Source: a bacterium
GTDB lineage: Bacteria; Armatimonadota; Chthonomonadetes; Chthonomonadales; CAJBBX01
Length of the DNA stretch: 57,505 nt
Direction of reading: 5' to 3'
NCBI GenBank assembly: GCA_009885735.1
Contig: VFKD01000043.1
Location: 1 to 57,505, forward strand
This document shows, one piece after another, positions 670-44,600 of this stretch. The notes beneath the pieces are model-generated. The model saw only the letters and a program-made list of their open reading frames with translations. It searched no databases and had not been told where the DNA came from. Both the position numbers and the translations under genes were made by a program. Positions within the stretch are counted from its first letter, which is position 1. The number at the start of each line of letters is the position of its first letter.

Positions 670-2271
670 ATGAAACGCTGGCTCATCGCTCTTATTCCTA
701 TATTCGGCCTGGGCGCTCTGGTGAGCTGGCGCCTTCAGCTCGTGGCAGCGGACACTGCTGCCAAGGAGAAGGTGAAGAGCGAGCGAGGCAAGACGGCCCC
801 GCTAGTCTCCGTCACCCCGGCGGTAGTTCGGGACTACTCCCGAACGTACACTGCCATCGGAACCATTGAATCTCCTCACATTGTCCCCATCGCCTCGAAA
901 GTGTCCGGCAGGCTGATGTTCCTGACCGCTCGCGAGGGCGACCGCGTGACCACAGGCCAGCTACTCGCGCGCATTGATGCATCCGAGGTTGACGCGGATG
1001 TTCGCCGCGAGAAGGCCGCTCTCGCAGAGGCGCGATCGCGCCTTGCACAGGCACAGCTTACACAAGGTTCCACGGACGTAGGGATCGACAGTCAGATCCG
1101 CCAGCGCGAGGCGGCCGTGACAAGCGCGAACGCTGACATGGTTCAAGCTCAAGAGACCAATGTGGGCGAATTGGAAGAGGCCGCGGCCGCAGTTCGCGAC
1201 GTCATTGGCCGGATTCAAAGCGCTGAAGCCGGAATCTCAAGCGCTCAGGCGGATATCCGCAGCGCTCAGGCAAACCTGGAGAACGCTCAGGTGAAGCTTG
1301 GCCGTGTGCAGGCGCTCTTCAACCAGGGCTTTATCGCCGCTCAGGACGTGGACGACGCGCGCACTACCGTGAGCGTTCACAAGAGCACCGTGGATGCCGT
1401 CATGAGCAAGCGCAACTCCGCCCAGGCCCAACGGGCCTCCGCGGAGGCGCAGAAGGTTTCAGCCGAGCGACGCGTGGATGTGGTGCGGTCGCGAGGCAAG
1501 GCGAATATTGAGGCGGCTCGGGCCAAGGTTGCCGAGGCCAAGGCCGCCCTTGATGTGGCCCAGGCGAACGTGTCGCAGCGGCCCGCCTATCGAGCCGGCA
1601 TTGCTGCGCTTTCGGCAAACGTGGCTGCGTCGCATGCTGCGGTCCTGCAGGCGGAGGCGCGCCGCTCCGAGACAGAGCTGAGATCGCCCTTGGACGGCTT
1701 CGTCACCGCACGCACGCTCGACCCCGGCGCAATGGCATCTCCCGGTCAACCGATCCTCACGGTTCAAGCGCTAAGTCAAGTCTGGATGACCGCATCGGTG
1801 CCCGAGGACGTATCGCGCAAAGTTACGGTCGGAATGCCGGCAGAGATTGAACTGGACGGCCTGCCCGAGAAACGAATATCCGGCCACGTCGTGCAGGTAA
1901 ATCCCTCGGCGGACGTGCTAAGCCGGCAGTTCACCATTCGCGTGGGGCTGTCGAACGCAGGCGCCGCCATTAAGCCAGGAATGTTTGGCCGCGTACACCT
2001 CGTAGTTGAGCGCATCCTGGGCGCCGTGATGATTCCTCGCGAGGCGGTGAAGGACACGCTTGCAGGCAGGACTGTGACAGTGGTGGGCGTAGACGGAAAG
2101 GCGGAGATACGACAGGTTGTGATTGGCGCGTCGGACCCAACCGGTTACGTGGTGCAGTCCGGCCTCGCCGGGGGCGAGAATGTGATTGTCATGAGCGCAG
2201 GCGCAATCAAGGACGGCGCCAACGTCCGTGTAAATGCCGCAAAGCCTGCGACCGTGCAGAAGGAGAAGTGA
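670..2271 (+). CDS. RND efflux periplasmic adaptor (HlyD/MFP family)
   Basis: 533 aa with an N-terminal membrane anchor, a long Ala/Gln-rich coiled-coil hairpin (SAQADIRSAQANLENAQVKL) and a C-terminal beta-barrel region. It sits immediately upstream of an RND permease. Confidence 0.9.
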   Translation: MKRWLIALIPIFGLGALVSWRLQLVAADTAAKEKVKSERGKTAPLVSVTPAVVRDYSRTYTAIGTIESPHIVPIASKVSGRLMFLTAREGDRVTTGQLLARIDASEVDADVRREKAALAEARSRLAQAQLTQGSTDVGIDSQIRQREAAVTSANADMVQAQETNVGELEEAAAAVRDVIGRIQSAEAGISSAQADIRSAQANLENAQVKLGRVQALFNQGFIAAQDVDDARTTVSVHKSTVDAVMSKRNSAQAQRASAEAQKVSAERRVDVVRSRGKANIEAARAKVAEAKAALDVAQANVSQRPAYRAGIAALSANVAASHAAVLQAEARRSETELRSPLDGFVTARTLDPGAMASPGQPILTVQALSQVWMTASVPEDVSRKVTVGMPAEIELDGLPEKRISGHVVQVNPSADVLSRQFTIRVGLSNAGAAIKPGMFGRVHLVVERILGAVMIPREAVKDTLAGRTVTVVGVDGKAEIRQVVIGASDPTGYVVQSGLAGGENVIVMSAGAIKDGANVRVNAAKPATVQKEK

Positions 2272-2278
2272 TAGTCAA

Positions 2279-5200
2279 ATGAACATCGCACGCTTCTCTG
2301 TTACGCGGCCTGTGGCGGTCACCATGCGCATCGCCGCACTGGTGCTGCTCGGGGCAATCTGCCTAACTCGCCTGCCGGTTGATCTTCTTCCCAAGATCAC
2401 TCTGCCCACCATCGTGGTGCAAACCACCTGGCCAAACGTAGGGCCAGAGGAAATGGAGGCGGTCATTACACGGCCTGTCGAGAGGGCCGTCTCGTCGGTT
2501 CCAAACCTCTATCAGGTGACCTCGAACACTTCCGAGGGCCAATCCTTCGTCCGCATCCAGCTGGCGTGGGGAACCGACGTGGGCCAGGGCGCGGCAGACG
2601 TTTTGCAGCTCGTGCAGCGAGCACGGAGGGAGTTCCCGAACGACCCGACCCTACAGTCTCCCGTAGTCTTCAAGTTCGACCCATCGCAGATGCCGGTACT
2701 CACCTACGGCGTATCCGGGATGACGGACTCAGTCAAGCTGCGGATGCTGCTCGATAACCAGGTCGCGCCCATCCTCGAGTCTGCAGACGGCGTAGCCTCG
2801 GTGAGCATCTCCGGCGGACAGACGCGCGCGATAATGGTGGAGGTGGACCCTGCGAAGCTGCGCGCACACAGTCTCTCGCTGAGCGAGGTCTCGAGGCGAA
2901 TTGCCCAGGAGAACTTGAACCTTCCTGCCGGCATTGCGAAGCAGAGCGACACCGAATTCACCATTCGCAGCCTGGGCCTCTTCACGTCTGTGGACGAGAT
3001 TGCCAAAGTACCCATTGGACAAAACCGCGGCAGGATCGTCACTATCGGAGACGTTGCAACGGTTCGCGACGGCGCTCCGGAGCGCAGGATATTCACTAGG
3101 CTCAATGGCGAGCCTGCAGTCGCCATCGTAATCTCGAAACAGAGCGGCGCCAACACGGTTTCGACCGTCGAGGCTGTCCAGAAGCGACTGCTGAAGGTTA
3201 ACGAGCTGTTCCCTCAGCTCTCATTTGGTCTGGCGCAGAACCAGGCGCAATACATCGCCAATTCCATCGACAATCTGAAGCATCACGCCCTCCTTGGCGG
3301 CATCCTGGCGATCCTCATTCTGCTGTTCTTCCTCCGCAATCTTCGCAGCACGTTCGTGGTGGCTCTTTCGATACCGATCTCGATTATCTCAACCTTTAGC
3401 CTGCTGTACATCTGCGGCTTCTCGCTGAACGTCATGTCGCTCGGCGGGCTCGCGCTGGCCACCGGGCTCATCGTGGACGACGCCGTGGTGGTGCTGGAGA
3501 ACATCTTCAGGCACATTGAACGGGACAAGAAGCGCGCGGCTGAGGCGGCCGTCTCGGGCACCAACGAGATCATGGGCGCGGTGCTGGCCTCCACGTTTAC
3601 GGTGATGGTGGTCTTCCTGCCTCTGCTGCTCATCAAGGGGCAGGCGGGCCAGATGTTCACCCAGTTCGCCCTGGTGGTTATCTTCTCAATCCTCGTGTCG
3701 CTTCTGGATGCAGCGACCGTGGTGCCGATGCTTGCCTCCAGGATGATACAAGGCGATGCGCACCACGAGGACATTGAGGACGGACACAAGCGTGGAATTC
3801 GTGAGAGAATGTTTCACCGCTTCGGCCAGTGGTTCGACAGCATGGACGAGTCGTACCGTAACGGGCTTCGGTGGGCGCTTCGGCACAGATATGCGATTAT
3901 TGGCGGCGCTGCCACGCTGACTGCGGCGACCTTCCTCATGGCGCCGTATGTGGGTACCGAACTGATGCCGCAGACGGACGGCGGAGAGTTCTCGATCAAC
4001 ATCAAGCTGCCTCCAGGCACTGCTTTGGCGACCACGAACAAGACGATTCTCGAGATTGAAACTCTGGTGCTCAAGAACCCGAATGTCGAAACTACTTTCG
4101 CCTCCGCTGGTGGAAGCATGCGGTTTCGCGCCTCTGTTGGGTCTCCCAAGTCGAACGAAGGCACTGTGATCGCGAAGCTGAAGCAGGACAGGAAGCAGGG
4201 CACGGCGGCCGTGATGGCTGATCTCAAGAAGGACCTTGCCAAGCTTGCAGGCGTTCGCGCCTCTCCAATGCTTTCGGACATTGTGGCCGGAATGATCTCC
4301 GGCGGGCCGGCCGGAGTGGAGTTCAACATTTTCGGCAACGACCTGCCCACACTCGCTCGCCTCGGTCAAGATGCCCTGGCCCGAGTGCGCAACATTCCGG
4401 GCTACGAGAATCCAGACACCAACTGGCAGGAGGCCACCCCGGAGCTTCGGTGGAACGTGGACCGCGAGAAGGCCGCGCAGTTCAATTTGAGCTTCCAAGA
4501 CGTTGCCAGCGCCATCGGCACGGCCACGAACGGGTCCGTGGCCAGCTACTTCCAGGATGCTGGGTTTCAGTATCCTATCATTGTTCAGTTTCCAGCATCT
4601 GAACGCAAGAGCGTGGAAAGCCTTGCAAGCCTGCCTGTGAGAACGGCATTCGCGGGTCGTCCAGGAGGCGACAGATCGCCGGACATCCTTCTCGGGCAGA
4701 TTGCCAAGCCGAACTTCGGCATAGGCCCCAGCGAGATTACTCGCCAGGACAGGCAGCGGTTCATCTCGGTCGGCGGTCAGGCTCTAGGGCGATCAGAGGG
4801 TGAAATACAGAAGGACATCGGCAAGGCCCTCAAGGACATGCTGCTCCCTCCCGGCTACTACTGGGACTGGGGAACGCGACTAAAGAACCAGGCTGAGGAG
4901 TCGTCCGGCATGTGGCTCGCAGTGGGGCTCGCCATCTGCCTTATCTATATGCTGCTAGCCTCCCAGTTCGAGTCGTTTGTTCACCCGCTTACGGTTCTGC
5001 TCTCGGTGCCTCTCTCCGCAGTCGGAGTGGTGCTGGCGTTCTTCCTGACTGGGCGAACCTTCGGCATGACCGCCTACATTGGGGTCCTGATGCTGGTGGG
5101 AATCGTAGTCAAAAACGGCATCCTGCTGGTGGATTACACGAACGTGCTGCGCGGACGCGGAATGGCTCGCGACGAGGCCGTTATCACCGCTGGTCCGACC

Positions 5201-5488
5201 CGGCTTAGGCCGATCTTGATGACTACGCTCGCCACAATCGCCGGCATGCTGCCTATCGCAATCGGGTACGGCCAGGGCTCGGAGACGCAGGCGCCGATGG
5301 CCACGGCGGTTATAGGCGGTCTCATTACGTCCACCATGCTTACCCTTTTTGTTATTCCTACCGTCTATACCATGTTCGACGACCTGGGGAGGTTCCTTCA
5401 GAAGGACAAGCGCGACTTGACGCGAGCGCTGCTGGTGGAGCCCTCCCCGGAGGCGGTTGAGCGCGAACCGGTGGGACCCGTGGCTTGA
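2279..5488 (+). CDS. RND efflux permease (AcrB/HAE family)
   Basis: The start MNIARFSVTRPVAVTM is a typical RND N-terminus. The product is about 1070 aa with 12-TM architecture and two large periplasmic loops. AGGAGAAG lies upstream of the ATG at 2279. The ORF-track start at 2234 overlaps the adaptor gene and is probably too far upstream. Confidence 0.93.
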   Translation: MNIARFSVTRPVAVTMRIAALVLLGAICLTRLPVDLLPKITLPTIVVQTTWPNVGPEEMEAVITRPVERAVSSVPNLYQVTSNTSEGQSFVRIQLAWGTDVGQGAADVLQLVQRARREFPNDPTLQSPVVFKFDPSQMPVLTYGVSGMTDSVKLRMLLDNQVAPILESADGVASVSISGGQTRAIMVEVDPAKLRAHSLSLSEVSRRIAQENLNLPAGIAKQSDTEFTIRSLGLFTSVDEIAKVPIGQNRGRIVTIGDVATVRDGAPERRIFTRLNGEPAVAIVISKQSGANTVSTVEAVQKRLLKVNELFPQLSFGLAQNQAQYIANSIDNLKHHALLGGILAILILLFFLRNLRSTFVVALSIPISIISTFSLLYICGFSLNVMSLGGLALATGLIVDDAVVVLENIFRHIERDKKRAAEAAVSGTNEIMGAVLASTFTVMVVFLPLLLIKGQAGQMFTQFALVVIFSILVSLLDAATVVPMLASRMIQGDAHHEDIEDGHKRGIRERMFHRFGQWFDSMDESYRNGLRWALRHRYAIIGGAATLTAATFLMAPYVGTELMPQTDGGEFSINIKLPPGTALATTNKTILEIETLVLKNPNVETTFASAGGSMRFRASVGSPKSNEGTVIAKLKQDRKQGTAAVMADLKKDLAKLAGVRASPMLSDIVAGMISGGPAGVEFNIFGNDLPTLARLGQDALARVRNIPGYENPDTNWQEATPELRWNVDREKAAQFNLSFQDVASAIGTATNGSVASYFQDAGFQYPIIVQFPASERKSVESLASLPVRTAFAGRPGGDRSPDILLGQIAKPNFGIGPSEITRQDRQRFISVGGQALGRSEGEIQKDIGKALKDMLLPPGYYWDWGTRLKNQAEESSGMWLAVGLAICLIYMLLASQFESFVHPLTVLLSVPLSAVGVVLAFFLTGRTFGMTAYIGVLMLVGIVVKNGILLVDYTNVLRGRGMARDEAVITAGPTRLRPILMTTLATIAGMLPIAIGYGQGSETQAPMATAVIGGLITSTMLTLFVIPTVYTMFDDLGRFLQKDKRDLTRALLVEPSPEAVEREPVGPVA

Positions 5489-6909
5489 AACGATCGGCGT
5501 TACAGGTCTTTGTCCTTGGCGCCTCGCTCGCGGTCTCCATTCGGGCCGATTCGCAGGCGCCAACTGCGACGCAGCAGCCTGCGGTCGAGCCGGTCATCAA
5601 GGCGAGTCCCCTGCCGCCACTTGTGAAGCTTCCTGTGCCGCCGACCGCTCAGGATGCCGCTCCCAAACGACCCGTCACCGCAGCCGAAGCGGCGCGAACC
5701 GCGCTTCTGCTTCAGCCGGACCTCATCGCAGCGCGTGCAAGCGTCTCTATGGCGCAGGGCCGAACGAGGCAGAGTCGTTCCGGGCTCCTGCCGCAGCTTG
5801 GGGTAGGCGCCGCCTACACTCACACCGAGAGCATTCGCTCGGGCGGGAGCTCAAGTGGAGGGACCGGAGGCACCGGAGGAGGATCGTTCGTCACCGTTCC
5901 CGGCTACCAGATCTCCACGAACCTGCAGCAGCTTCTGTTCGACTTTGGCCGCACTCGCAGCCTGGTGAAACAGTCCGAGGACCTGGAGCGGGCGGCCCAC
6001 GCGAATCTTAAGCGAGTCCAGTCTGACCTCGTGTATGACGTCAAGCTGGCCTTCTATTCACTTGTTCAAGACCTACGGCTCGTGGAGGTTAACGAGGCGA
6101 ACGTCCGGAGCCAAGACGCGCAACTCGCCCTCGCCCGTGCCCGTTTGGACGAGAAGGTGGGGCTTCCCCTGGACGTGGTTCGGGCTCAAACGGCCGTCTC
6201 CGAAGCAATACTGAACCTAACGCTTGCCCGGAACAACGCCTCGATCTCGCGGACGCGGCTGGCGACCATCATGGGCCTAGATGCGAGAACTCCCATCGAA
6301 ACGGCAGACAGCGCCGAGCCGGCTCCCAGAAGCGACGACGTAAACGAGATGGCGACGGAAGCGCTGGCACAACGACCCGAGGCTATGCTGGCGGCAGCGG
6401 AGCTTTCGGCTGCGGAGAAGGGGCTCGCCGCTGCACGTCACACAAACTCCCCGAGCTTGGCCGCGAATCTGGGGCTCTCCGCACGAGGCAACTCGGTTCC
6501 TCCGACGAGCATCAACGCAAGCATCGGCGCATCTATTTCGTGGAGTCCGGTCGATTCCGGCTTCACCCAGGGCCGCGTGCAGGAGGCAAAGGCTCTGGTC
6601 GATTCTGCGCGAGCCGCCGCTGCTCAGGTCCGCCTGACTATCGTTGAGGAGGTTTCGACGGCCTACCTGAACCTGCGCACCGCCGAACAGCGCACCGTCA
6701 CAACCGAAGCCCAGGTAACCAGCGCGCAGGAAGCGGTTCGCCTCGCGGAGGGGCGCTATCGCGCAGGGCTCGGCACTTTCCTGGACGTGATCGACACGCA
6801 GTCTGCCCTCCTTGCTGCCCGCACGAGCCGGGTGAATGCTGTAACCTCTATTGAGTTGGCCCGGGCCGCGCTCGCAAGGGCTGAAGGTGGGAGGGTACCA
6901 CGTGCATAG
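5485..6909 (+). CDS. TolC-family outer membrane efflux protein
   Basis: A TTG start overlaps the RND stop (TTGA). It has a signal peptide and duplicated alpha-helical repeats typical of OMF proteins (LDVVRAQTAVSEA..., FLDVIDTQSALLAAR). Confidence 0.9.
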   Translation: MKRSALQVFVLGASLAVSIRADSQAPTATQQPAVEPVIKASPLPPLVKLPVPPTAQDAAPKRPVTAAEAARTALLLQPDLIAARASVSMAQGRTRQSRSGLLPQLGVGAAYTHTESIRSGGSSSGGTGGTGGGSFVTVPGYQISTNLQQLLFDFGRTRSLVKQSEDLERAAHANLKRVQSDLVYDVKLAFYSLVQDLRLVEVNEANVRSQDAQLALARARLDEKVGLPLDVVRAQTAVSEAILNLTLARNNASISRTRLATIMGLDARTPIETADSAEPAPRSDDVNEMATEALAQRPEAMLAAAELSAAEKGLAAARHTNSPSLAANLGLSARGNSVPPTSINASIGASISWSPVDSGFTQGRVQEAKALVDSARAAAAQVRLTIVEEVSTAYLNLRTAEQRTVTTEAQVTSAQEAVRLAEGRYRAGLGTFLDVIDTQSALLAARTSRVNAVTSIELARAALARAEGGRVPRA

Positions 6910-33446: not shown

Positions 33447-34079
33447 ATGAGTTCAGCATACAATCGAATACGATCGGAGGACCCAGCCCACGAGGCGCTG
33501 GAGGCGCTGCGCCGACGCGGCGGGCTCGCTCGCACGGGTGACCTGGCGCGCGAGGGAATCCGAGCGTCCACACTCACCGCCCTGTGGCGGGAAGGTCGTC
33601 TCATTCGGATTAAGGCGGGACTCTATCAGCTCCCGGACTCGCTCGCCGAGGAACATGCCGCGCTGCTGCAGGCGGCTCTCGCCGTGCCGGATGGCGTGAT
33701 CTGTCTGATATCCGCTCTGGACTACTACGGCCTCACGGACGCCAACCCGGAGGCAGTGTTCATCGCAATTCTCATGGGTGGGTGGGCGCCGAAGGTTATC
33801 GAACCCCCGGTACGGTTTGTCCGTTTTCGATCTCGGCTGTTCGACATGGAGATCTGTCGGGAGGAGATCGGCGGACGATCGGTCCGGATATACTCGCCCG
33901 AGAAGACTCTCTGTGACTGCCTCCGGCTGCCGGAGATTGTAGGGCTGGACATTACACTGGCTGCTCTTCGCCGCTATCTGGGGTCGCCGGAAGCAAATCG
34001 GAGCCGCCTAATGGAAGTGGCGCAGGCGTGCAGGGTCGAGCGCCGCCTGCGCCCTTATGTGGAGGCCATGGATGGCTGA
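33447..34079 (+). CDS. abiEi: AbiEi-family type IV antitoxin (winged-helix regulator)
   Basis: N-terminal transcriptional-regulator-like domain (LARTGDLAREGIRASTLTALWREGRLIRIKAGLYQL). The size and its pairing with a DUF1814 nucleotidyltransferase match AbiEi. Confidence 0.75.
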   Translation: MSSAYNRIRSEDPAHEALEALRRRGGLARTGDLAREGIRASTLTALWREGRLIRIKAGLYQLPDSLAEEHAALLQAALAVPDGVICLISALDYYGLTDANPEAVFIAILMGGWAPKVIEPPVRFVRFRSRLFDMEICREEIGGRSVRIYSPEKTLCDCLRLPEIVGLDITLAALRRYLGSPEANRSRLMEVAQACRVERRLRPYVEAMDG

Positions 34080-35037
34080 CCATGGTGGTGATCAGGAGGA
34101 TCGACCGCAAACAGCCGCTGCGCGGGCTATGTCGGTTCGGGACCGCCTGCTCAATCTCGCTCGCGGTCAGGGCGTGCCCTACAACACGCTGCTGCGCCGT
34201 TTCCTGGGGGAGAGGTTTCTCTGGCGGCTGGCTCAGTCACCCTTTCAGGACGAGTTCATCTTGAAGGGTGCCTTCCGGTTGGTTGCCCGCAGCACAAGCT
34301 GGGCACGCGCAACCCGCGACATCGACCTACTGGGCAGCGGCGCATCCGACCCGGAACGGCTCGCGGCGATTTTCCGTGAGATTTGCATGGTGGAAGTTGA
34401 TGCCGAAGATGCCGCCCGTTTCGATCCGGAGACCGTGCAGGCAGTCGCGATCATAGAGGGAGCGGAATATGGCGGGATCCGCGTAACTCTGACCGCGTAT
34501 CTGGGCACGGCACGCGAGCGGATTCAGGTCGATATAGGCTTTGGTGATGCGGTTACACCGTCGCCCGAATCCCTCCAGGTGCCCTCACTCCTGCCGGGCA
34601 TGCCGATGGCTCAACTTCGGGCGTACAATGACGTAACGACCGTCGCCGAGAAGTTCCAGGCGATGGTTAAGCTGGGACCGACGAATAGCCGCATGAAAGA
34701 CTTCTACGATCTCTATCGATTCGCCACTACAACGGAGTTCGATGGCCGGCTGCTGGGAGAAGCGATCCGGAGGACCTTCGAGAGGCGTGCAACTGCATTT
34801 CACGAAAGCGAGGCGACTTTGGCGCCGGCGTTTCGGCTGATCCCTGGCAAGCAGACGCAGTGGGTGGCATTCCGCAGGTCTCTCGGCGTGGCAGCGATGG
34901 AGGTTCCGGAAGAGTTTGCGGAATTGGTCGCCACGATTCAAGGATTCCTGTGTCCGGTTCACCTCGCGTGCCGACAACAAAAGCCGCTGAGCCTGGGCTG
35001 GAATCCAGAGGCTCGTTTGTGGGAAGTCGAACTGTAG
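34072..35037 (+). CDS. abiEii: AbiEii/AbiGii-family nucleotidyltransferase toxin (DUF1814)
   Basis: ERFLWRLAQSPF, FILKGAF, TRDIDLLG and KFQAMV motifs. The ATG at 34072 has GGAGG 6 nt upstream and overlaps the abiEi stop by 8 nt. Confidence 0.82.
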   Translation: MADHGGDQEDRPQTAAARAMSVRDRLLNLARGQGVPYNTLLRRFLGERFLWRLAQSPFQDEFILKGAFRLVARSTSWARATRDIDLLGSGASDPERLAAIFREICMVEVDAEDAARFDPETVQAVAIIEGAEYGGIRVTLTAYLGTARERIQVDIGFGDAVTPSPESLQVPSLLPGMPMAQLRAYNDVTTVAEKFQAMVKLGPTNSRMKDFYDLYRFATTTEFDGRLLGEAIRRTFERRATAFHESEATLAPAFRLIPGKQTQWVAFRRSLGVAAMEVPEEFAELVATIQGFLCPVHLACRQQKPLSLGWNPEARLWEVEL

Positions 35038-35410: not shown

Positions 35411-35469
35411 CTGTCAATGGGTGTTGAGCCCCTGCCCGTTCCTGACAAATGCTATACTTTTGGTCAGGA

Positions 35470-36444
35470 ATGACCGCGATGACACTGCCGGAACCCAAGC
35501 TGAGCCCGCCGAGCGTGCGCACGGCTGAGCTCTCGATCGTTGAGCTGATCGGCAACACCCCGCTTCTGAAACTGCGCAAGATCGTGCCCGCCAATCCGCG
35601 CGTCGAGATTCTCGCGAAGGCCGAGTGGTACAACCCCGGCGGCTCTATCAAGGATCGTCCCGCGTGGAACATTATCCAGGAGGCCGAGCGCTCCGGCAGG
35701 CTGACTCCGGACAAGACCATCCTGGACGCCACAAGCGGCAACACCGGCATCGCCTATGCAATGATCGGCGCAGCCTGCGGGTACCGGGTTACTCTGTGCC
35801 TTCCGTTGAACGCCAACGAGGAGCGCAAGAGCCTTCTGCGCGCTTTCGGCGCGGAGCTTGTCCTCACGGACCCCAGGCAGAGCTCCGACGGCGCTATTCT
35901 GAAGGCACGGGAACTCTTTGCCGCGAATCCGGATAGATACTTCTACGCGGACCAGTACAATAATCCTGCCAACTGGCAGGCGCACTATGCGTCGACAGGA
36001 CTCGAAATCTGGCGACAAACCGGCGGGCGCATCACGCACTTTGTTGCCGGCCTCGGCACCAGCGGGACGTTCATGGGAGTGGGCCGGTACCTGAGGCATG
36101 TCGCTCCTCACGTAAAGCTCGTTTCGATGCAGCCCGATTCGCCGTTTCACGGCCTTGAGGGCATGAAGCACATGGAGACGGCAATTGTTCCCGGCATCTA
36201 CGAACCGTCCCTTGCCGACAGCGCATTGGAGGTGGGCACGGAGGATGCGCACACCATGGTGAAGCGCCTCGCGCGGGAGGAGGGAGTGCTTGTGGGCATC
36301 TCGTCCGCTGCGAACCTGGTGGCGTCACTGAAGTTGGCTGAGACTCTGGACGAGGGCGTTATCGTGACGATCTTCTGCGACAATGGCGACCGCTATCTGT
36401 CGGACAGGTTCTGGGAGGAGGAGACCGGTGATCCGGCTATCTGA
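35470..36444 (+). CDS. cysM: Cysteine synthase, PLP-dependent (CysM-like)
   Basis: NPGGSIKDRPA (PLP lysine), TSGNTGIAYA and GLGTSGTFMG motifs. The start could be ATG 35449, 35470 or 35479. Confidence 0.9.
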   Translation: MTAMTLPEPKLSPPSVRTAELSIVELIGNTPLLKLRKIVPANPRVEILAKAEWYNPGGSIKDRPAWNIIQEAERSGRLTPDKTILDATSGNTGIAYAMIGAACGYRVTLCLPLNANEERKSLLRAFGAELVLTDPRQSSDGAILKARELFAANPDRYFYADQYNNPANWQAHYASTGLEIWRQTGGRITHFVAGLGTSGTFMGVGRYLRHVAPHVKLVSMQPDSPFHGLEGMKHMETAIVPGIYEPSLADSALEVGTEDAHTMVKRLAREEGVLVGISSAANLVASLKLAETLDEGVIVTIFCDNGDRYLSDRFWEEETGDPAI

Positions 36445-36844
36445 CGAGCTGCTCAGCGGCATTCGCGACCATGCCCGCGCTGACTATCCATATGAGTGCT
36501 GCGGCGCGATGCTGGGAACCGAAGTTGGTGGTCTGAAAGAAATCACTGAGCTGCGCCCAGTGGAGAATGTCCATGAGGACGGACATGAGCGCAGATTCCT
36601 GATTTCGGCTCGCGATATGTTTCTGATCGAACGCGAGGCTCGAGCAAAGAGCCTCAACGTGCTTGGATTCTACCATTCGCACCCGGACCATCCCGCACGG
36701 CCTAGCGAGTATGACCGCGAACATGCCTGGCCGTACTATAGCTACGTGATTGTCTCGGTGATGAAGGGCGAGCCTGCCGACATGACGAGCTGGACCCTCG
36801 CCGAGGGCGGCCTCGCCTTCGACGCGGAGGAGATTCAGTCCTGA
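36428..36844 (+). CDS. mec: JAMM/MPN+ metalloprotease (Mec-like)
   Basis: ECCG and HSHPDHPARPSEYD (JAMM H-x-H-x7-S-x2-D). The GTG at 36428 follows GGAGGAGGAG and overlaps the cysM stop by 17 nt. Confidence 0.85.
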   Translation: MIRLSDELLSGIRDHARADYPYECCGAMLGTEVGGLKEITELRPVENVHEDGHERRFLISARDMFLIEREARAKSLNVLGFYHSHPDHPARPSEYDREHAWPYYSYVIVSVMKGEPADMTSWTLAEGGLAFDAEEIQS

Positions 36845-36849
36845 TCTCC

Positions 36850-36869
36850 GGGTGGGGCTTGCCCCACCC
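36850..36869 (+). terminator. Short GC hairpin between mec and the carrier-E1 gene
   Basis: gggtgggg cttg ccccaccc forms an 8-bp perfect stem. There is no U-tract, so it may be a processing or stability element rather than a terminator. Confidence 0.3.
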
Positions 36870-36965
36870 TGCCGGTGCCTACTCACAGGTAAACTGAACA
36901 CGACAGATCCAGAATGGACGCTGTCCATCTGCCGCCAGAGTCCGTAGGACGAGGAGAGAGCCCAA

Positions 36966-38420
36966 ATGCCGGTAAAACTGCTGATTCCCACTGCTTTACT
37001 GCGCTACGCAGACGGCGTAGATGAGATAGAAGTTCAGGCCGCCACGGTCAAAGAGGCCCTTGAGCAGCTCGCCGACGGCCACCCGGAGATAAAGCGGCAC
37101 CTGTTCGGAGCGGATGGCGAGTTGCGCCACTACGTGAACGTCTATGTGGGCACGGAAGACATGCGCCACCTGGACGGCATAGCCACCGTGCTCGCCGAAG
37201 GCGCCGAGGTAACCATCGTGCCCAGCATTGCCGGCGGTGTTGGGGTGCTCCGCGACGACTTTGAGTCGGTCACCCTCAGCAAAGAGGAAATGCTTCGATA
37301 CAGCCGCCATCTCATCATGCCCGAGGTGGCAGTCGCCGGACAGAAGAAGCTGAAGGCCGCGAGGGTGCTTTGCATCGGAGCTGGAGGGCTGGGATCGCCT
37401 CTGACGATGTATCTCGCAGCGGCTGGAGTGGGCACTATCGGCATCGTCGACTTCGATGTGGTGGACTACACGAACTTGCAGCGCCAAATTATCCACGGCA
37501 CCGAGGATGTGGGCCGCCTGAAGCTGCACTCTGCCATAGACTCGCTGAAGAGCATCAATCCGTTCGTCAACGTCATTGGATTCGAGGAGCGCTTCACCTC
37601 CGAGAATGCCCTGGACATCGTCAAGGACTTCGACATCGTCATAGACGGCACAGACAACTTCCCCACGCGCTACCTGGTGAACGACGCCTGCGTGCTGATG
37701 GGCAAGCCGAACGTCTATGGCTCGATTTTCCGGTTCGAGGGTCAGGCCAGCGTATTCTGGGCTGAAAAGGGCCCGTGCTACCGCTGTCTTTATCCCGAGC
37801 CGCCACCTCCCGGCATGGTGCCGTCGTGTGCAGAGGGAGGCGTCTTGGGCATCCTTCCCGGCGAGATCGGCATCATCCAGGCCACGGAAGCCATCAAGCT
37901 CATCCTGGGTATCGGCGACCCGCTGGTCGGCAGGCTGCTGCTCTTTAATGCGCTCAAGATGAGCTGGAGAGAGCTGAAGCTGCGCAAGGACCCAAGCTGC
38001 CCGCTCTGCGGCGATAACCCCACCATCACGGAGCTGATCGACTACGAGCAGTTCTGCGGCATTTTGCCGCCCTCCGTGGAAGCTCCCGGCCAAAGTTTGT
38101 CCAAGTGGGAGATGTCGGTCGTGGAGCTCAAGGCGAGCATGGACCGTGGCGAGAAGCCCTTCGTACTGGATGTTCGCGAACCCTACGAGCGTGAGATTGC
38201 TAATATCCCGGACACGATTCTCATCCCGATGAACGAAGTTCCGAACCGCCTCAATGAGATTCCCAGGGACCGCGAGGTGATACTGCAATGCAGGTCCGGC
38301 CAGCGCTCGATGGATATCCTCGAGTACCTGCGCACGCAAGGGTATACAGAGCTGAAGAACCTGAAGGGCGGTGTCTTGGCATGGTCGGACGAGATCGACC
38401 CTGAAGTTGCGCAGTATTAG
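36966..38420 (+). CDS. Fusion protein: ThiS/MoaD/CysO-like sulfur carrier + MoeZ/MoeB-type adenylyltransferase + rhodanese
   Basis: Residues 1-91 have a beta-grasp carrier pattern ending TIVPSIAGG (GG codons at 37233..37238). The frame continues without a stop into LRYSRHLIMPEVAVAGQKKLKAARVLCIGAGGLGSP, PPPGMVPSCAEGGVLG and a C-terminal rhodanese domain with CRSGQRS. Confidence 0.85.
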   Translation: MPVKLLIPTALLRYADGVDEIEVQAATVKEALEQLADGHPEIKRHLFGADGELRHYVNVYVGTEDMRHLDGIATVLAEGAEVTIVPSIAGGVGVLRDDFESVTLSKEEMLRYSRHLIMPEVAVAGQKKLKAARVLCIGAGGLGSPLTMYLAAAGVGTIGIVDFDVVDYTNLQRQIIHGTEDVGRLKLHSAIDSLKSINPFVNVIGFEERFTSENALDIVKDFDIVIDGTDNFPTRYLVNDACVLMGKPNVYGSIFRFEGQASVFWAEKGPCYRCLYPEPPPPGMVPSCAEGGVLGILPGEIGIIQATEAIKLILGIGDPLVGRLLLFNALKMSWRELKLRKDPSCPLCGDNPTITELIDYEQFCGILPPSVEAPGQSLSKWEMSVVELKASMDRGEKPFVLDVREPYEREIANIPDTILIPMNEVPNRLNEIPRDREVILQCRSGQRSMDILEYLRTQGYTELKNLKGGVLAWSDEIDPEVAQY

Positions 38421-38461
38421 CCTTCGGGAACTTTCAAACCACGTAAGCCGATAATGAAACC

Positions 38462-38914
38462 ATGAGATCACATCGGTCTTTTGCCGCTAGGTGGTTCGCC
38501 CTGCTCGTCGCAATCGCGACTTGCAGTTCGACCGCGGCTACGACCGTCCGATGGCAGTGTACTGACGGCACGCCGTGCCCGGCAGACTGCCGAATGGCGC
38601 ATGGCGTAGTTCCCAAGGACAACGTGAAGGCTCCGGCCTGTCCTCGCTGCAAGCTCGACTCTGCCGTTCAACCGACGCGCGGGAGCGGCGTGGGCTGCAC
38701 ATCGCCGGTATGTGTTCCCCGCGTTACGGCTCCAACTCAGTCTCGCACAGCCGACGTTTACGCTCCCTCTATCGACCACTCGGCGTGCTTGTCGGAACTG
38801 CCGCCTCTTCCGACTCCATTGGGTTCAGAAGAGCACACTTGTGCCGACATCCCCTTTGTCCCTCCGCAGCCCCCTGGAGCCACTGGCGCACGCGCGCCTC
38901 CCTCGCTCTCCTAG
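38462..38914 (+). CDS. Cys-rich secreted hypothetical protein
   Basis: Signal-like MRSHRSFAARWFALLVAIATCSS. Contains CTDGTPCPADC and CPRC motifs and a Pro-rich tail. GATAAT (38450..38455) lies 6 nt upstream of the ATG, suggesting a leaderless mRNA. Confidence 0.45.
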   Translation: MRSHRSFAARWFALLVAIATCSSTAATTVRWQCTDGTPCPADCRMAHGVVPKDNVKAPACPRCKLDSAVQPTRGSGVGCTSPVCVPRVTAPTQSRTADVYAPSIDHSACLSELPPLPTPLGSEEHTCADIPFVPPQPPGATGARAPPSLS

Positions 38915-38988
38915 ATCCGTCCGATTGCACCTCTGATGGTTTGGCACGCCTGCGCCAAGCCCGCATGCACTCACATCTAGGAGATTCC

Positions 38989-39918
38989 ATGACTCATCAG
39001 ATCAACGCGTGGCAGACTGCCGTGGCCCTCTGGCTTGCCGCATTTGGTCCAGCGGCAGCACTCGCCCACGAACCGCTCTGGGGCGAATCGCCCCAAACGT
39101 TCGCCTTCGGGGTGTTTCATCCCGAGATTCGCTTTGGCTACGACAATGCATCGGTGCTGCTCGGCGGCAGCCGCAGACTCCATAACCCGGACAGTCTGCG
39201 ACGGTCGCGCCTGGACAGCCTCGTCTCGCTCGCCTATGCGCCCGAAACCTGGCTGAACGTCAAGCTGGAAGTACCCTTCGCGCAGGTCGCAAGCCAACAG
39301 CGCATTGCCGGTTCGCTGCGAAGTTCAACCGTTTCCGGAACAGGCGACCTGGTGCTAAGCGCCAAAACGCGGTTCGAACAGCGCTTCGGACCAGACTGGA
39401 AGTTCCACCAGAGCGCAACGGTCGGCCTGCAGCTTCCCACGGGTGAGCGAGGAGGGCGCATGCCGGACGGATCGCTGCTGGCGCCGTCCGACCAGCCGGG
39501 TTCGGGGCGGTTCGGATTGAGCCTCGGCTATGCGGTTGCCTATGAGCGGCTTGCAGACACCACCTGGGCATCGGTCATGTTCCGCACGGATGCTCCGTCG
39601 GGGAAATACCGCCGAGGCGACAGCCTGATGGCGGACGCGGCATACGGCTACTGGGTTCGGCGGGCACTCAGGCCACAGGACGAAGGATTGCTTCTCGCGC
39701 TGGGGCCTCACCTGGAGATGTCCGGCAAGGATAGAGCTGCCGGCGCCTCGGACCCAAACAGCGGATACACATCCATCGGCCTGCAGGCGACGTTCATCCG
39801 AACCCAAGGGCAGACCCAGACCCGGATCGGCATTCTCGTGCCTCTTCACCAGCATGTGGCCGGTACTCAACTTCGAAGCGACCTGCAGATACGCGCAGGA
39901 TGGGAGATGCTGCTATGA
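38989..39918 (+). CDS. Outer-membrane beta-barrel protein (MetA-pathway/transporter-like family)
   Basis: The start MTHQINAWQTAVALWLAAFGPAAALA is a signal peptide, with AGGAG 5 nt upstream. Alternating beta-strand pattern throughout. The ORF-track start at 38575 adds an implausible Arg/Ser-rich extension. Confidence 0.6.
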   Translation: MTHQINAWQTAVALWLAAFGPAAALAHEPLWGESPQTFAFGVFHPEIRFGYDNASVLLGGSRRLHNPDSLRRSRLDSLVSLAYAPETWLNVKLEVPFAQVASQQRIAGSLRSSTVSGTGDLVLSAKTRFEQRFGPDWKFHQSATVGLQLPTGERGGRMPDGSLLAPSDQPGSGRFGLSLGYAVAYERLADTTWASVMFRTDAPSGKYRRGDSLMADAAYGYWVRRALRPQDEGLLLALGPHLEMSGKDRAAGASDPNSGYTSIGLQATFIRTQGQTQTRIGILVPLHQHVAGTQLRSDLQIRAGWEMLL

Positions 39919-40505
39919 ACCGATTCCTCTTCGCATTCATGCTCACCTGCGCCCTGCTGGTTCTGCCCATCATTGGCAGGACCCAGCTAAGGCAAGCAGT
40001 GCTGGGAGTCAACGGAGCCACCTGCCCCACCTGAGCCTACAGCCTCGACAAGGGGCTGAAACGCCTGGAAGGCGTTGAGAAGACACAACTCATCACGGAC
40101 AAGCCGGTGCGCATTGTAATCAGCCTGAAGTCTGTAAGCTGGATCGACCCACCGAAGTTTGCAAAGCAGATCGCGGATGCGGGCTATGGCGCGCGCAAGG
40201 AGGAGGTACGGCTAACCGTTGTTGGCACGGTGGAGCGGGATGGTGATCGTTTGGTGCTGACCCTACCCGAGATGAAGCCTCCCATTCGGCTTCTGCTCTC
40301 GGCCACTGGCTTGAAGGACAAGGCTGCGGCGGCCACTGCAACCGAGGCAATCAAGCTGCTGGAACAGAATGTGGGTAAGCTGGTCGAGGTAGAAGGCATG
40401 TGGATCCCCGCGGACAAAGGCGCGGGTCCTCTGGCGCTGCAGCGCTTGGCGCCAGTGAAGTTCTCGGAGCACGCTAAGGACCCAGTTCCAAAAGCAGGAA
40501 CCTGA
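39915..40505 (+). CDS. Candidate selenoprotein: exported HMA-domain protein with a C-P-T-U motif (in-frame TGA at 40032..40034)
   Basis: The ATG at 39915 overlaps the upstream stop (ATGA). MNRFLFAFMLTCALLVLPIIG...AVLGVNGATCPT is followed by TGA and then AYSLDKGLKRLEGVEKTQLITDKPVRIVISLK, continuous with ORF 40107..40505 in the same frame. The GxxCxxC HMA pattern has the stop at the second Cys. Hairpins follow the TGA. Confidence 0.6.
40040..40076 (+). promoter_or_regulatory. Candidate bacterial SECIS hairpins for the UGA at 40032
   Basis: Hairpin A: cagcctc (40040..40046) / ggggctg (40052..40058), 7 bp including one G-U pair, loop GACAA. Hairpin B: aacgcc (40060..40065) / ggcgtt (40071..40076), 6 bp, loop UGGAA. 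Confidence 0.35.
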
Positions 40506-40579
40506 CTGTCGGCGTCGAAACCATACCTTGGTTCAGCTCATTCCCGAGAGAACCAGAACCGGAAGGAAGGAGAGATTCA

Positions 40580-40981
40580 ATGAAAGGGCTCTGCGCGCTG
40601 CTCGCAGCAGGCCTCCTGATCTCAAGCGTTTCGCTTGCCCAGGAGCCAAAGGCCAAGACGTTCACCGTTATTATGGATGGTGCCCTCTGAGGCGGATGCG
40701 CTGGCCAGTTGGCTAGCTCGCTCTCAGCAGTCGATGGAGTGAAAGTCGTCACTGCTCCGAAGAAGGGCACCGGCGATGCCGGAACGACATTTGCGGTGAT
40801 TGAGTTGACAGGAAAGACGAAGATCAGTCAAGTGATCGCGGCGGTGGAATCGGCCAAAACCCCACATGCCTCCAAGGTCGCTCCCGATGTGACGGGGCTC
40901 GCGCCATTCAAACTCAAGGCGACCACAACCGTCGACGAGATCCGCAAAGCGCTGGTAAAGGCAGGACTGCTAGAAGAGTAG
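40580..40981 (+). CDS. Candidate selenoprotein: exported HMA-like protein with a U-G-G-C motif (in-frame TGA at 40688..40690)
   Basis: AAGGAGAG lies 6 nt upstream of the ATG at 40580. The signal peptide MKGLCALLAAGLLISSVSLA is followed by QEPKAKTFTVIMDGAL, then TGA, then GGCAGQLASSLSAVDGVKVV, continuous with ORF 40709..40981 in the same frame. The stop sits at the first Cys of the CxxC motif. Confidence 0.6.
40700..40717 (+). promoter_or_regulatory. Candidate bacterial SECIS hairpin for the UGA at 40688
   Basis: gctggcc (40700..40706) / ggctagc (40711..40717) forms 7 bp including one G-U pair. The loop is AGUU, and its G lies 20 nt from the U of the UGA. Confidence 0.35.
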
Positions 40982-40997
40982 CGCACCCACTCGCAGG

Positions 40998-41051
40998 GGT
41001 GTCCCGGTTGCTCCAAGCCCACGGGCTTGTTTCCAAAGCAATCGGGACGCC
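40998..41051 (+). terminator. Nested stem-loop downstream of the second HMA gene
   Basis: The outer 14-bp stem is ggtgtcccggttgc / gcaatcgggacgcc (two G-U pairs). It encloses an inner hairpin, caagccc ac gggcttg (41014..41029), followed by TTT. Confidence 0.4.
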
Positions 41052-41094: not shown

Positions 41095-41319
41095 ATGTGC
41101 CGAAGCATCAAGAAGCTGCGCCGCGCCGAGAGCGAACCTTCGCCCGAAGAGATCCGGGCGGCCGCGCTGCAATTCGTCCGCAAGATTAGCGGATACAACG
41201 CCCCATCCAGAGCCAACGCAGAGGCGTTCGAACGCGCCGTTGCCGACATTTCGAGATCGTCCGAGCAGTTGCTAGTTTCGCTGAACGCCAGCGGTGGTGC
41301 GCCAGTCCAGGCAGGCTAA
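41095..41319 (+). CDS. DUF2277-family small protein
   Basis: MCRSIKKLRR...EEIRAAALQFVRKISGYNAPSRANAEAFERAV matches the DUF2277 pattern. 74 aa. Confidence 0.75.
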   Translation: MCRSIKKLRRAESEPSPEEIRAAALQFVRKISGYNAPSRANAEAFERAVADISRSSEQLLVSLNASGGAPVQAG

Positions 41320-43699: not shown

Positions 43700-43952
43700 G
43701 GTTGGGCGGTTCCGGGGCGGGCGGGACGCCCGCGCTCCGCGCCTATGGAGTCGTACCGACCCGTTGCCGTTTGCCGTTGCCGGCCGAAGGTCATCCAGCC
43801 TGGGCGTTTACGGCCCAGGATTATCGGAAGAGTGAACGCGCAGCTCTTGTAACGCTTCCGTGGCGGGCGGGACGCCCGCGCTCCGCACCTGTGCAATCGT
43901 CCCGACCTGTTGCCTTCTGCCGGTTCCGGCCGAAGGTCATGCAGCCTGGACG
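43700..43952 (+). repeat. Two direct copies of a ~120-bp GC-rich element (left flank of the PIN/HTH cassette)
   Basis: Copies at about 43700..43820 and 43857..43952. Core sequence: gcgggcgggacgcccgcgctccg..gtcgtaccgacc.gttgcc.tttgccgttgccggccgaaggtcatccagcctgggcgtttacggcccagga. Contains a gcgggcg-gga-cgcccgc hairpin. Confidence 0.8.
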
Positions 43953-44600
43953 GTAGGTTTCGCAGAGTTGAGACCGAGCACTGTAATCCCAGGCGATCGA
44001 CGGGTTGAACCTCCAATTCGAAGCAACCCATCGGCAAAACTCTGCAAACTGCCTTAGCCTGGTCACCGCATTGACCAATCCCTGTTTCGCAAGTGTGTCT
44101 AGCAACTGGTCGATGGTCTGCGGCGGGTTCGTGAGGTCGAGCCGCTGTCTACGAACTACCGCACATACCGTCTCCTCATCCTCATCGAGTAGCTGCCGAA
44201 CGAGATCATCCGGATGCACAGCGCGGATGCCGTGGCCGCTCAGCACTGTATCCGGAAAGTCGCGGAGGTTTACGGTGACGATGACTTCGGCGCGAGCTTC
44301 AATTGCTGCGGCGGCAACGTGCCGATCATCCGCATCCGGAAGCACGATGGAGGAGATGTGCCGCTCGTAGCCGATCACGACGCTGCCAAGGATGTGCTCG
44401 TTCATCAAGTCGCGCGTGCGCTCCAGGCGCTCGCGGCTAAGGTCGGGACGCGACTCAAGTACGCTGCGGATCCACTCCTCGTGTATCTCGTCAGTCCATC
44501 GCGCCTGAACGAGTCCCGCGCCGGCAAGCCGAACAAGCAAGTCCCTGAGTGGCGCCGGATACAGGACGCAAGAGTCGTAGAGCGCGATGCGGCGGGGCAA
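43821..44600 (-). CDS. PIN-domain toxin (3' end runs into the repeat element)
   Basis: IALYDSCVLY (first acidic residue), LPDADDRHVAAAA and IVTVNLRDF motifs. The last 45 or so codons (..GCMTFGRNRQKATGRDDCTGAERGRPARHG..) are encoded by repeat copy 43857..43952. Confidence 0.78.
   Translation of the reverse strand: MPRRIALYDSCVLYPAPLRDLLVRLAGAGLVQARWTDEIHEEWIRSVLESRPDLSRERLERTRDLMNEHILGSVVIGYERHISSIVLPDADDRHVAAAAIEARAEVIVTVNLRDFPDTVLSGHGIRAVHPDDLVRQLLDEDEETVCAVVRRQRLDLTNPPQTIDQLLDTLAKQGLVNAVTRLRQFAEFCRWVASNWRFNPSIAWDYSARSQLCETYRPGCMTFGRNRQKATGRDDCTGAERGRPARHGSVTRAARSLFR

Follow-up and report, generated by a model that had tools for sequence, protein, structure and literature searches.

Two candidate exported selenoproteins of the HMA type encoded side by side on a bacterial contig

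Known systems and their relation to the locus

The bacterial selenoproteins known to date include the NF041115 UxxU metal-binding proteins, cation-transporting ATPases that contain selenocysteine (Sec, U), and proteins resembling DsbA, DsbG and the thiol:disulfide interchange proteins; MerT-type proteins are also among the known selenoproteins of the heavy-metal-associated (HMA) type (PMC13188914, PMC9312934). The 57.5-kb bacterial contig VFKD01000043.1 (positions 1 to 57,505; hereafter the window) carries two adjacent genes, here gene 1 and gene 2, each of which has an in-frame TGA at one ligand position of a CxxC-like site behind a signal peptide, and both are very probably true selenoprotein genes, judging from the comparisons with their relatives. 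An earlier reading of the window, the original prediction, had proposed them as CxxU and UxxC selenoproteins and had held envelope selenoproteins to be uncommon; this last belief needs some qualification, given that exported and HMA-type selenoproteins have precedents (PMC13188914, PMC9312934).

As for NF041115, the locus shares with it an HMA-type beta1-loop-alpha1 region with putative Sec in place of CxxC ligands, and the gene 1 orthologues have exactly the UxxU arrangement. It differs from NF041115 in its score (gene 1, 27.8 bits against a cut-off of 95, over profile positions 4-37 of 74 only; gene 2, 11.5 bits), and in that gene 1 adds to the HMA part both a signal peptide and a C-terminal domain of ~100 residues and follows an outer-membrane channel gene, with the copy in the window being CxxU. 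The Sec-containing cation-transporting P-type ATPase (UxxC, N-terminal HMA domain) and NF045683 (MerT/CopZ fusion-like) have Sec at the first CxxC position, as gene 2 would, and soft-metal handling is presumed to be common to them and gene 2; unlike these, which are domains of membrane transporters, genes 1 and 2 are predicted to encode small soluble exported proteins, and with NF045683 they reach 15.7 bits where 375 would be needed.

MerP (TIGR02052) and the CopZ/Atx1-type proteins are similar as well, MerP being a periplasmic protein made of a signal peptide and a single HMA domain with CxxC; however, these proteins use two cysteines within a GMTCxxC motif, and the MerP scores are 23.3 and 15.4 bits against 92.55. 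No mer operon genes (MerA, MerT, MerR) occur among the neighbours in the Pfam-scanned open reading frames (ORFs) of the window. Finally, the DsbA-like, DsbG-like and thiol:disulfide interchange selenoproteins (PMC13188914) are exported bacterial proteins with UxxC, but they have the thioredoxin fold and a redox function, whereas genes 1 and 2 are of the HMA type. With both genes under the cut-offs of the known selenoprotein models, these unannotated families are best described, from sequence comparison, as candidate new families of a known kind.

The two genes and their products

The two genes and their candidate Sec codons are the following:

39915..40505, plus strand: gene 1, exported selenoprotein candidate, 196 codons counting Sec
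40032..40034, plus strand: candidate Sec codon of gene 1 (TGA), second ligand of the CxxU site; same-column TGA in the related loci L001, L004 and L011/L012
40580..40981, plus strand: gene 2, exported selenoprotein candidate, 133 codons counting Sec, with a U-G-G-C site and a TPH motif
40688..40690, plus strand: candidate Sec codon of gene 2 (TGA), first ligand of the UxxC site; TGA in the related loci L007-L010 and L016, Cys in the related proteins P0004, P0006 and P0011

The ATG of gene 1 at 39915 shares the letters ATGA with the TGA that terminates the porin gene ahead of it, and another possible ATG is found at 39900. The frame reads MNRFLFAFMLTCALLVLPIIGRTQLRQAVLGVNGATCPT up to the TGA at 40032-40034 and continues as AYSLDKGLKRLEGVEKTQLITDKPV, with no further stop until 40503-40505; the site itself is GVNGAT-C-P-T-(TGA)-AYSLDKGLKRL, and its first ligand codon is TGC (40023-40025). 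The layout of the protein comprises a signal peptide, an HMA-type domain with C-P-T-U, and a C-terminal beta-rich domain of ~100 residues. Regarding gene 2, its ATG at 40580 is preceded by GGAAGGAGAG, and the frame reads MKGLCALLAAGLLISSVSLAQEPKAKTFTVIMDGAL up to the TGA at 40688-40690 and then GGCAGQLASSLSAVDGVKVV, being open until the TAG at 40979-40981; the signal peptide ends with SLA/QE and the site reads DGAL-(TGA)-GGC. The coordinates and frames of the original prediction all hold, both for gene 1 (ATG 39915, TGA 40032-40034, open into ORF 40107..40505) and for gene 2 (ATG 40580, TGA 40688-40690, open through 40981).

The likeness to HMA domains was scored on the read-through proteins with U written as C; against Pfam HMA (PF00403, gathering cut-off 24.8 bits), gene 1 obtained 26.3 bits and was above the cut-off. 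Its top NCBIfam match was NF041115 UxxU_metal_bind (E = 2e-6), followed by the MerP and CopZ models, all far under their cut-offs. In a profile search of the PDB nearly all matches of gene 1 were HMA domains (ATP7B, 1.6e-9; CopA, 2.8e-8), and the match with MerP (E = 4.4e-4) covered residues 28-93, spanning the whole domain. The gene 2 family gave weak matches in the same search, with E = 0.003-0.05 (PacS 0.003, MerP 0.026), again nearly all to HMA domains and over the full domain length. For P0011, one of the Cys-form relatives of gene 2, AlphaFold predicts the order beta-alpha-beta-beta-alpha-beta; the CxxC falls between beta1 and alpha1, and the core has a predicted local distance difference test (pLDDT) score of 74-89. 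In the predicted structure of gene 1 the HMA part has low confidence and beta1 is missing; the ~100 residues that follow form a beta-rich domain with one helix (pLDDT 73-86).

The possibility that the pair arose by recent duplication was considered and rejected, as the two proteins have 9 identities in 24 residues around the site and no likeness beyond it.

Conservation of the TGA codons

A search of 5.8 billion proteins with gene 1 returned two truncated proteins and no more, the product of the window itself and P0002; the latter is encoded on L001, a 69-kb lake metagenome contig of the European Nucleotide Archive (ENA). Read upstream in frame, L001 gives MRTVRFVALAGFLLVATLSLRADVKNAWVGVNGAT-(TGA)-PT-(TGA)-AYSLDKGLKRLDGV, both stops being TGA. 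The same U-P-T-U arrangement occurs in L004, a metagenome-assembled genome (JAPLCR01) from Lac Pavin that is labelled Armatimonadota and is close to L001, and in L011/L012, GC-rich metagenome contigs of the Joint Genome Institute (JGI); thus, the TGA column of the window is TGA in all four lineages, the window and three others. The first ligand column is Cys (TGC) in the window and TGA in the other three, so that a Cys/Sec exchange is seen in gene 1 only at this neighbouring column. The protein flanks are near-identical, GVNGATxPTxAYSLDKGL(K/R)RL; when the window is compared with the L001/L004 lineage, overall protein identity is ~50%, and the 60 nt after the UGA have a DNA conservation of 93%.

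As for gene 2, a word-indexed search found only a 99% identical fragment, while HMMER, run exhaustively with the 96 residues that follow the TGA, retrieved 17 proteins. Three full-length relatives carry Cys at the TGA column: P0004 (CGMC, motif region LEGAMCGMCAKQM), P0006 (CANC, RGSMCANCAGKL) and P0011 (CGAC, KGSMCGACAGEL). The remaining matches mostly begin a few residues past the motif; for five of these truncated relatives, all metagenomic, the DNA was examined, and all five loci have an in-frame TGA at the exact column of the window, behind a start codon and a signal peptide:

L007: VVSGAR-(TGA)-PGC, in-frame TGA
L008: LLKGSI-(TGA)-GGC, in-frame TGA
L009: VVNGAV-(TGA)-GGC, in-frame TGA
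L010: VVEGAL-(TGA)-PGC, in-frame TGA
L016: LILTGAQ-(TGA)-PGC, in-frame TGA

Two further relatives add less: P0007 is cut by a contig end and is uninformative, and P0023 is known by its ORF layout only, which matches the TGA pattern. An Asparaginase_2 gene stands immediately upstream of both the Sec form L008 and the Cys form L015 (which encodes P0011), so these two are an orthologous Sec/Cys pair. A profile search of a large database retrieved 13 members of the gene 2 family, none of them named and none with a Pfam domain; 12 of the 13 are truncated, as are both database matches of gene 1. The two families are rare, and public databases have them only as unnamed products that lack the N-terminus.

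A T-P-H motif, A(K/E)TPH, is invariant in the gene 2 family; it corresponds to residues ~94-96 of the window's protein (DNA ~40856-40867) and lies outside the canonical HMA signature. It may supply a third ligand or another functional residue.

Nine internal stops were examined, two of which belong to the near relatives L001 and L004, and every one is TGA; the terminal stops vary between TGA, TAG and TAA, and signal peptides are present in all full-length members of both families. These data bear on the possibility that the genes were inactivated recently, or are left over from a time when the genome still had the Sec machinery, with the TGAs now acting as stops and the products reduced to N-terminal peptides or to nothing functional. 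Such a reading could call on the Sec machinery not being seen in the window, and on the Cys at the first ligand of gene 1, where the relatives have Sec, which could be a step away from Sec. It is, however, highly improbable: the frames are intact on both sides of the TGA, as are starts, Shine-Dalgarno sequences, signal peptides and hairpins, and lineages so distant that the proteins are 45-53% identical retain the TGA in the same column, with no other stops or frameshifts. Stops scattered as in pseudogenes, which the original prediction had named as a sign against it, do not occur in the orthologues; the TGA is at the exact column in three further lineages for gene 1 and in five further loci for gene 2.

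A sequencing or assembly error was rejected as well, since the TGA of gene 2 recurs in a second assembly and the TGAs of both genes are conserved in other lineages; the second assembly is the Logan assembly of run SRR8670874, in which 1139 bp, the gene 2 TGA among them, are 100% identical to the window. Genome-wide reassignment of TGA was in turn rejected because TGA ends many ordinary ORFs of the window. The use of TGA as an ordinary stop at 2269-2271, 5486-5488 and 34077-34079 holds as first described, with the ORFs ending at 2271 and 34079 being supported by Pfam, and a rough gene call has 12 of 37 ORFs of at least 150 residues ending in TGA.

Hairpins downstream of the UGA codons

The model of the bacterial selenocysteine insertion sequence (bSECIS) used here has a loop of 3-9 nt, a stem of 4-16 bp, a G in the first two loop positions and a distance of 16-37 nt from the UGA, with a minimum free energy at or below -7.5 kcal/mol (PMC13188914). 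Three hairpins were compared with it:

40040..40058, plus strand: hairpin A of gene 1, CAGCCUC-GACAA-GGGGCUG, -11.1 kcal/mol
40060..40076, plus strand: hairpin B of gene 1, AACGCC-UGGAA-GGCGUU; best SECIS candidate for the window's UGA
40687..40727, plus strand: SECIS candidate of gene 2, upper stem 40700-40706 with 40711-40717, loop AGUU 40707-40710

Hairpin A is paired in all four gene 1 sequences, its basal pair being C-G, U-A or U-G; its loop begins 12 nt past the conserved UGA, which is too close for the bSECIS model, and 21 nt past the upstream UGA of the UxxU forms. Hairpin B fits the model, with a loop that starts 31-32 nt after the UGA and energies of -9.0 to -11.9 kcal/mol; the loop is UGGAA or UGGAU with G at positions 2-3, and in the window's own fold it is GGA with G at positions 1-2. 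It may be speculated that in the UxxU forms there is one hairpin for each UGA. Shuffled sequences fold less well than the 60 nt behind the gene 1 UGA (z = -3.07 for the window, -3.77 for L001), and over the four sequences 98% of cells pair, against 36-54% in slid controls. Three pair changes are two-sided: C-G/U-A at the base of A, and A-U/C-G and A-U/G-C in B.

The stem of gene 2 reaches down in the window to include the UGA itself, at its base. In all six Sec forms the loop is AGUU (GUU in L016) and begins 16-17 nt past the UGA, with energies of -9.9 to -15.8 kcal/mol, so that the hairpin meets the bSECIS model; against shuffles the window's hairpin has z = -1.9 to -1.1 and is weaker alone than that of gene 1. 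In the upper stem three pairs are altered on both sides, and in L010 an Ala-to-Thr change (GCU to ACU) is offset by a synonymous GGC-to-GGU change on the opposite strand of the stem. The residues encoded by the hairpin are G-Q-L-(A/T) in five Sec forms and RSLT in the other; the Cys forms have KQMA, GKLS or GELN, and in the two of them that were checked no comparable hairpin occurs at this position (-4.3 and -5.6 kcal/mol). Overall, the hairpins first reported at 40040-40058, 40060-40076 and 40700-40717 are present, and folding, orthologues and the bSECIS model all gave favourable results (conservation, compensatory changes).

The hairpins also bear on whether the UGA could be read through without selenium, by a near-cognate Cys-tRNA or Trp-tRNA or by a suppressor, to give products of full length that contain no Sec. 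The existence of Cys forms of gene 2 shows that a Cys is functional at the site, and what is known of the Sec machinery is confined to the window; both would suit such a mechanism. On the other hand, a conserved hairpin with a loop G at a fixed distance, occurring in the TGA forms and not in the two Cys forms checked, is a hallmark of SelB-dependent recoding, the UxxU orthologues would need two efficient read-through events 9 nt apart, and TGA is a normal stop in the window, which together make selenium-free read-through improbable in the extreme. The selenoprotein reading of the two genes (CxxU and UxxC) is thus strongly supported by the conserved TGA column, the Sec/Cys exchange and the SECIS-like hairpins.

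Observations that weigh against the selenoprotein and HMA assignments

Some results weigh against the reading of genes 1 and 2 as HMA-type selenoproteins. None of selA, selB and selD was found among the 20 ORFs of the 57.5-kb window that were scanned with Pfam, and ARAGORN detected no tRNA or tRNA-Sec in the window, nor in L001, L004 and L008. Homologues with Cys at the UGA column, a check set by the original prediction, were found for gene 2 (P0004, P0006 and P0011) and not for gene 1, for which only four lineages are known. The observed degree of covariation is reached by 34-39 of the 500 shuffles used as controls, with small samples (4 and 5-6 sequences), and the hairpin stretches are partly constrained by conserved amino acids too.

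Regarding the fold, gene 1 passes Pfam HMA, and the 20.5 bits of gene 2 are just under the 24.8 cut-off. Foldseek gave nothing significant for the gene 1 model, with weak hints of an oligonucleotide/oligosaccharide-binding (OB) fold for the C-terminal domain only (E 0.037 or worse). For the gene 2 family, represented by the P0011 model, there was no match in the PDB at E <= 0.001; the non-significant list has HMA domains (4a48, 6fp6_B, 8b2r) among other ferredoxin-like folds. Finally, both the specificity for any given metal and the function in the envelope are presumed.

Two other scans of the window can be mentioned here: Rfam had no family at the gathering threshold over its whole length, and in E-value mode on 39850-41050 gave only a chance match to a small nucleolar RNA (snoRNA); a scan for other gene pairs with an in-frame TGA yielded no further convincing selenoprotein candidate.

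Gene neighbourhood

Two genes ahead of gene 1 have counterparts next to its orthologues:

38989..39918, plus strand: outer-membrane beta-barrel channel, Phenol_MetA_deg family (Pfam); its stop overlaps the start of gene 1
38462..38914, plus strand: secreted Cys-rich protein, WQCxDGxPCPxxC ... CTSPxCV, of no Pfam family; conserved in L001 (7294-7746) and in L011

The channel has 64% identity over 176 residues with the product of the L001 gene immediately upstream of the gene 1 orthologue, and the order is the same in L011. Judging from this gene order, gene 1 is part of a conserved, putative envelope cassette, in which the candidate selenoprotein is accompanied by the secreted Cys-rich protein and the outer-membrane channel; the part upstream of gene 1 extends over 38462-39918 in the window, 7294-9827 in L001 and ~1100-3674 in L011. 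Two more genes, absent from the window, belong to the cassette in L001 and L011: one for a small secreted protein whose tail is CC-rich (CCIMxSGCCxMCPxCC), the other for a TlpA-like thioredoxin with CPPC. A link of gene 1 to the outer-membrane channel would be consistent with this arrangement.

Relatives of gene 2 are found without the gene 1 cassette; the L010 homologue is directly behind a ThiF-rhodanese gene, and in the window the cassette stands between the ThiS-ThiF-rhodanese gene (36966-38420) and gene 2. From these contexts, the adjacency of genes 1 and 2 looks like the local juxtaposition of two independent units. Gene 2 is accordingly placed in a family of its own, small, marked by the TPH motif, in which predicted Sec forms and Cys forms interchange. 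A DUF2277 gene lies near a member of the gene 2 family both in the window (41095-41319) and on the forest-soil contig L016 (2876-3145).

As for the rest of the window, a pyridoxal phosphate (PLP)-dependent cysteine-synthase-like gene (35449-36444) precedes the ThiS-ThiF-rhodanese triple fusion (36966-38420), and the genes of 35449-38420 look like a sulfur-carrier (CysO/MoeZ-type) thiocarboxylate pathway; the minus-strand ORF of 491 residues at 36996-38471, antisense to the fusion gene, is almost certainly not a gene but a shadow ORF in GC-rich DNA. At 33447-35037 there is a type IV toxin-antitoxin or abortive-infection module, made up of the antitoxin AbiEi and the nucleotidyltransferase toxin AbiEii, and a non-coding direct repeat of 100 nt (43707-43806 and 43853-43952, 86% identical, spacing 146 nt) lies by a PIN-domain gene (43821-44600, minus strand). 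A three-gene efflux operon at 670-6909 consists of a HlyD/CusB-type membrane-fusion protein, a 1084-residue ORF of the size of a resistance-nodulation-division (RND) pump, and an outer-membrane efflux protein (OEP); it could be relevant to metal export.

Proposed mechanism and function

Bacteria insert Sec by means of SelB, which together with Sec-tRNA(Sec) attaches to the hairpin and reads the UGA. By analogy with this established process, the hairpin just 3' of each UGA would recruit SelB with its Sec-tRNA(Sec), and Sec would be inserted for one ligand Cys of the HMA-type CxxC, so that the site becomes C-P-T-U in gene 1 and, in gene 2, U-G-G-C. The N-terminal signal peptide would then direct each product, unfolded, to the cell envelope, a location to which the predicted cleavage sites point (SLA/QE in gene 2, LRA/DV in the gene 1 orthologues). 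There, the selenolate/thiolate pair would probably bind Cu(I), Hg(II) or another soft metal ion in the manner of MerP or CopZ, and less probably act as a low-potential redox pair; the TlpA-like protein of the cassette could keep the selenol pair reduced, in either a metal or a redox role. A metal-binding function in the envelope is slightly favoured on the basis of these likenesses.

The main functional alternative is that both are true selenoproteins in which UxxC and CxxU form a redox centre, as in an envelope thiol/selenol oxidoreductase. Most bacterial selenoproteins are redox proteins (PMC9312934), the gene 1 cassette of L001 and L011 includes a TlpA-like thioredoxin and Cys-rich proteins, and neither site has the Met that is typical of the copper-chaperone motif GMxCxxC. 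Against it, the likeness in sequence and profile is only to HMA domains (Cu-ATPase domains, MerP, CopZ, NF041115), with none to the thioredoxin fold, so that a redox centre is considered unlikely, and less likely than a metal site.

Significance

Recognition of the two genes as selenoprotein genes restores their signal peptides and metal sites, and would add two families to the bacterial selenoproteome and extend the use of Sec to exported HMA-type proteins; it also shows where annotation pipelines lose such genes. Armatimonadota, the label of the lineage of one gene 1 relative, was not met in the selenoprotein literature searched. The association of gene 1 with an outer-membrane channel and a TlpA-like reductase is a testable lead towards selenium-based metal handling in the envelope.

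Going further, and only tentatively, the gene 1 cassette may be a hitherto undescribed selenium-dependent envelope system, made up of the Cys-rich secreted protein, the small CC-tailed protein, the TlpA-like reductase, the outer-membrane channel and a secreted UxxU/CxxU HMA protein whose C-terminal domain is OB-like. Its diselenol site would capture, at the outer membrane, a soft metal (Cu, Hg or Ag) or a chalcogen species and would be kept in the reduced state by a reductase dedicated to it, with gene 2 as a second, independent family of envelope selenoproteins. If this rather doubtful proposal were true, the organism would be unusually invested in extracytoplasmic selenium chemistry.

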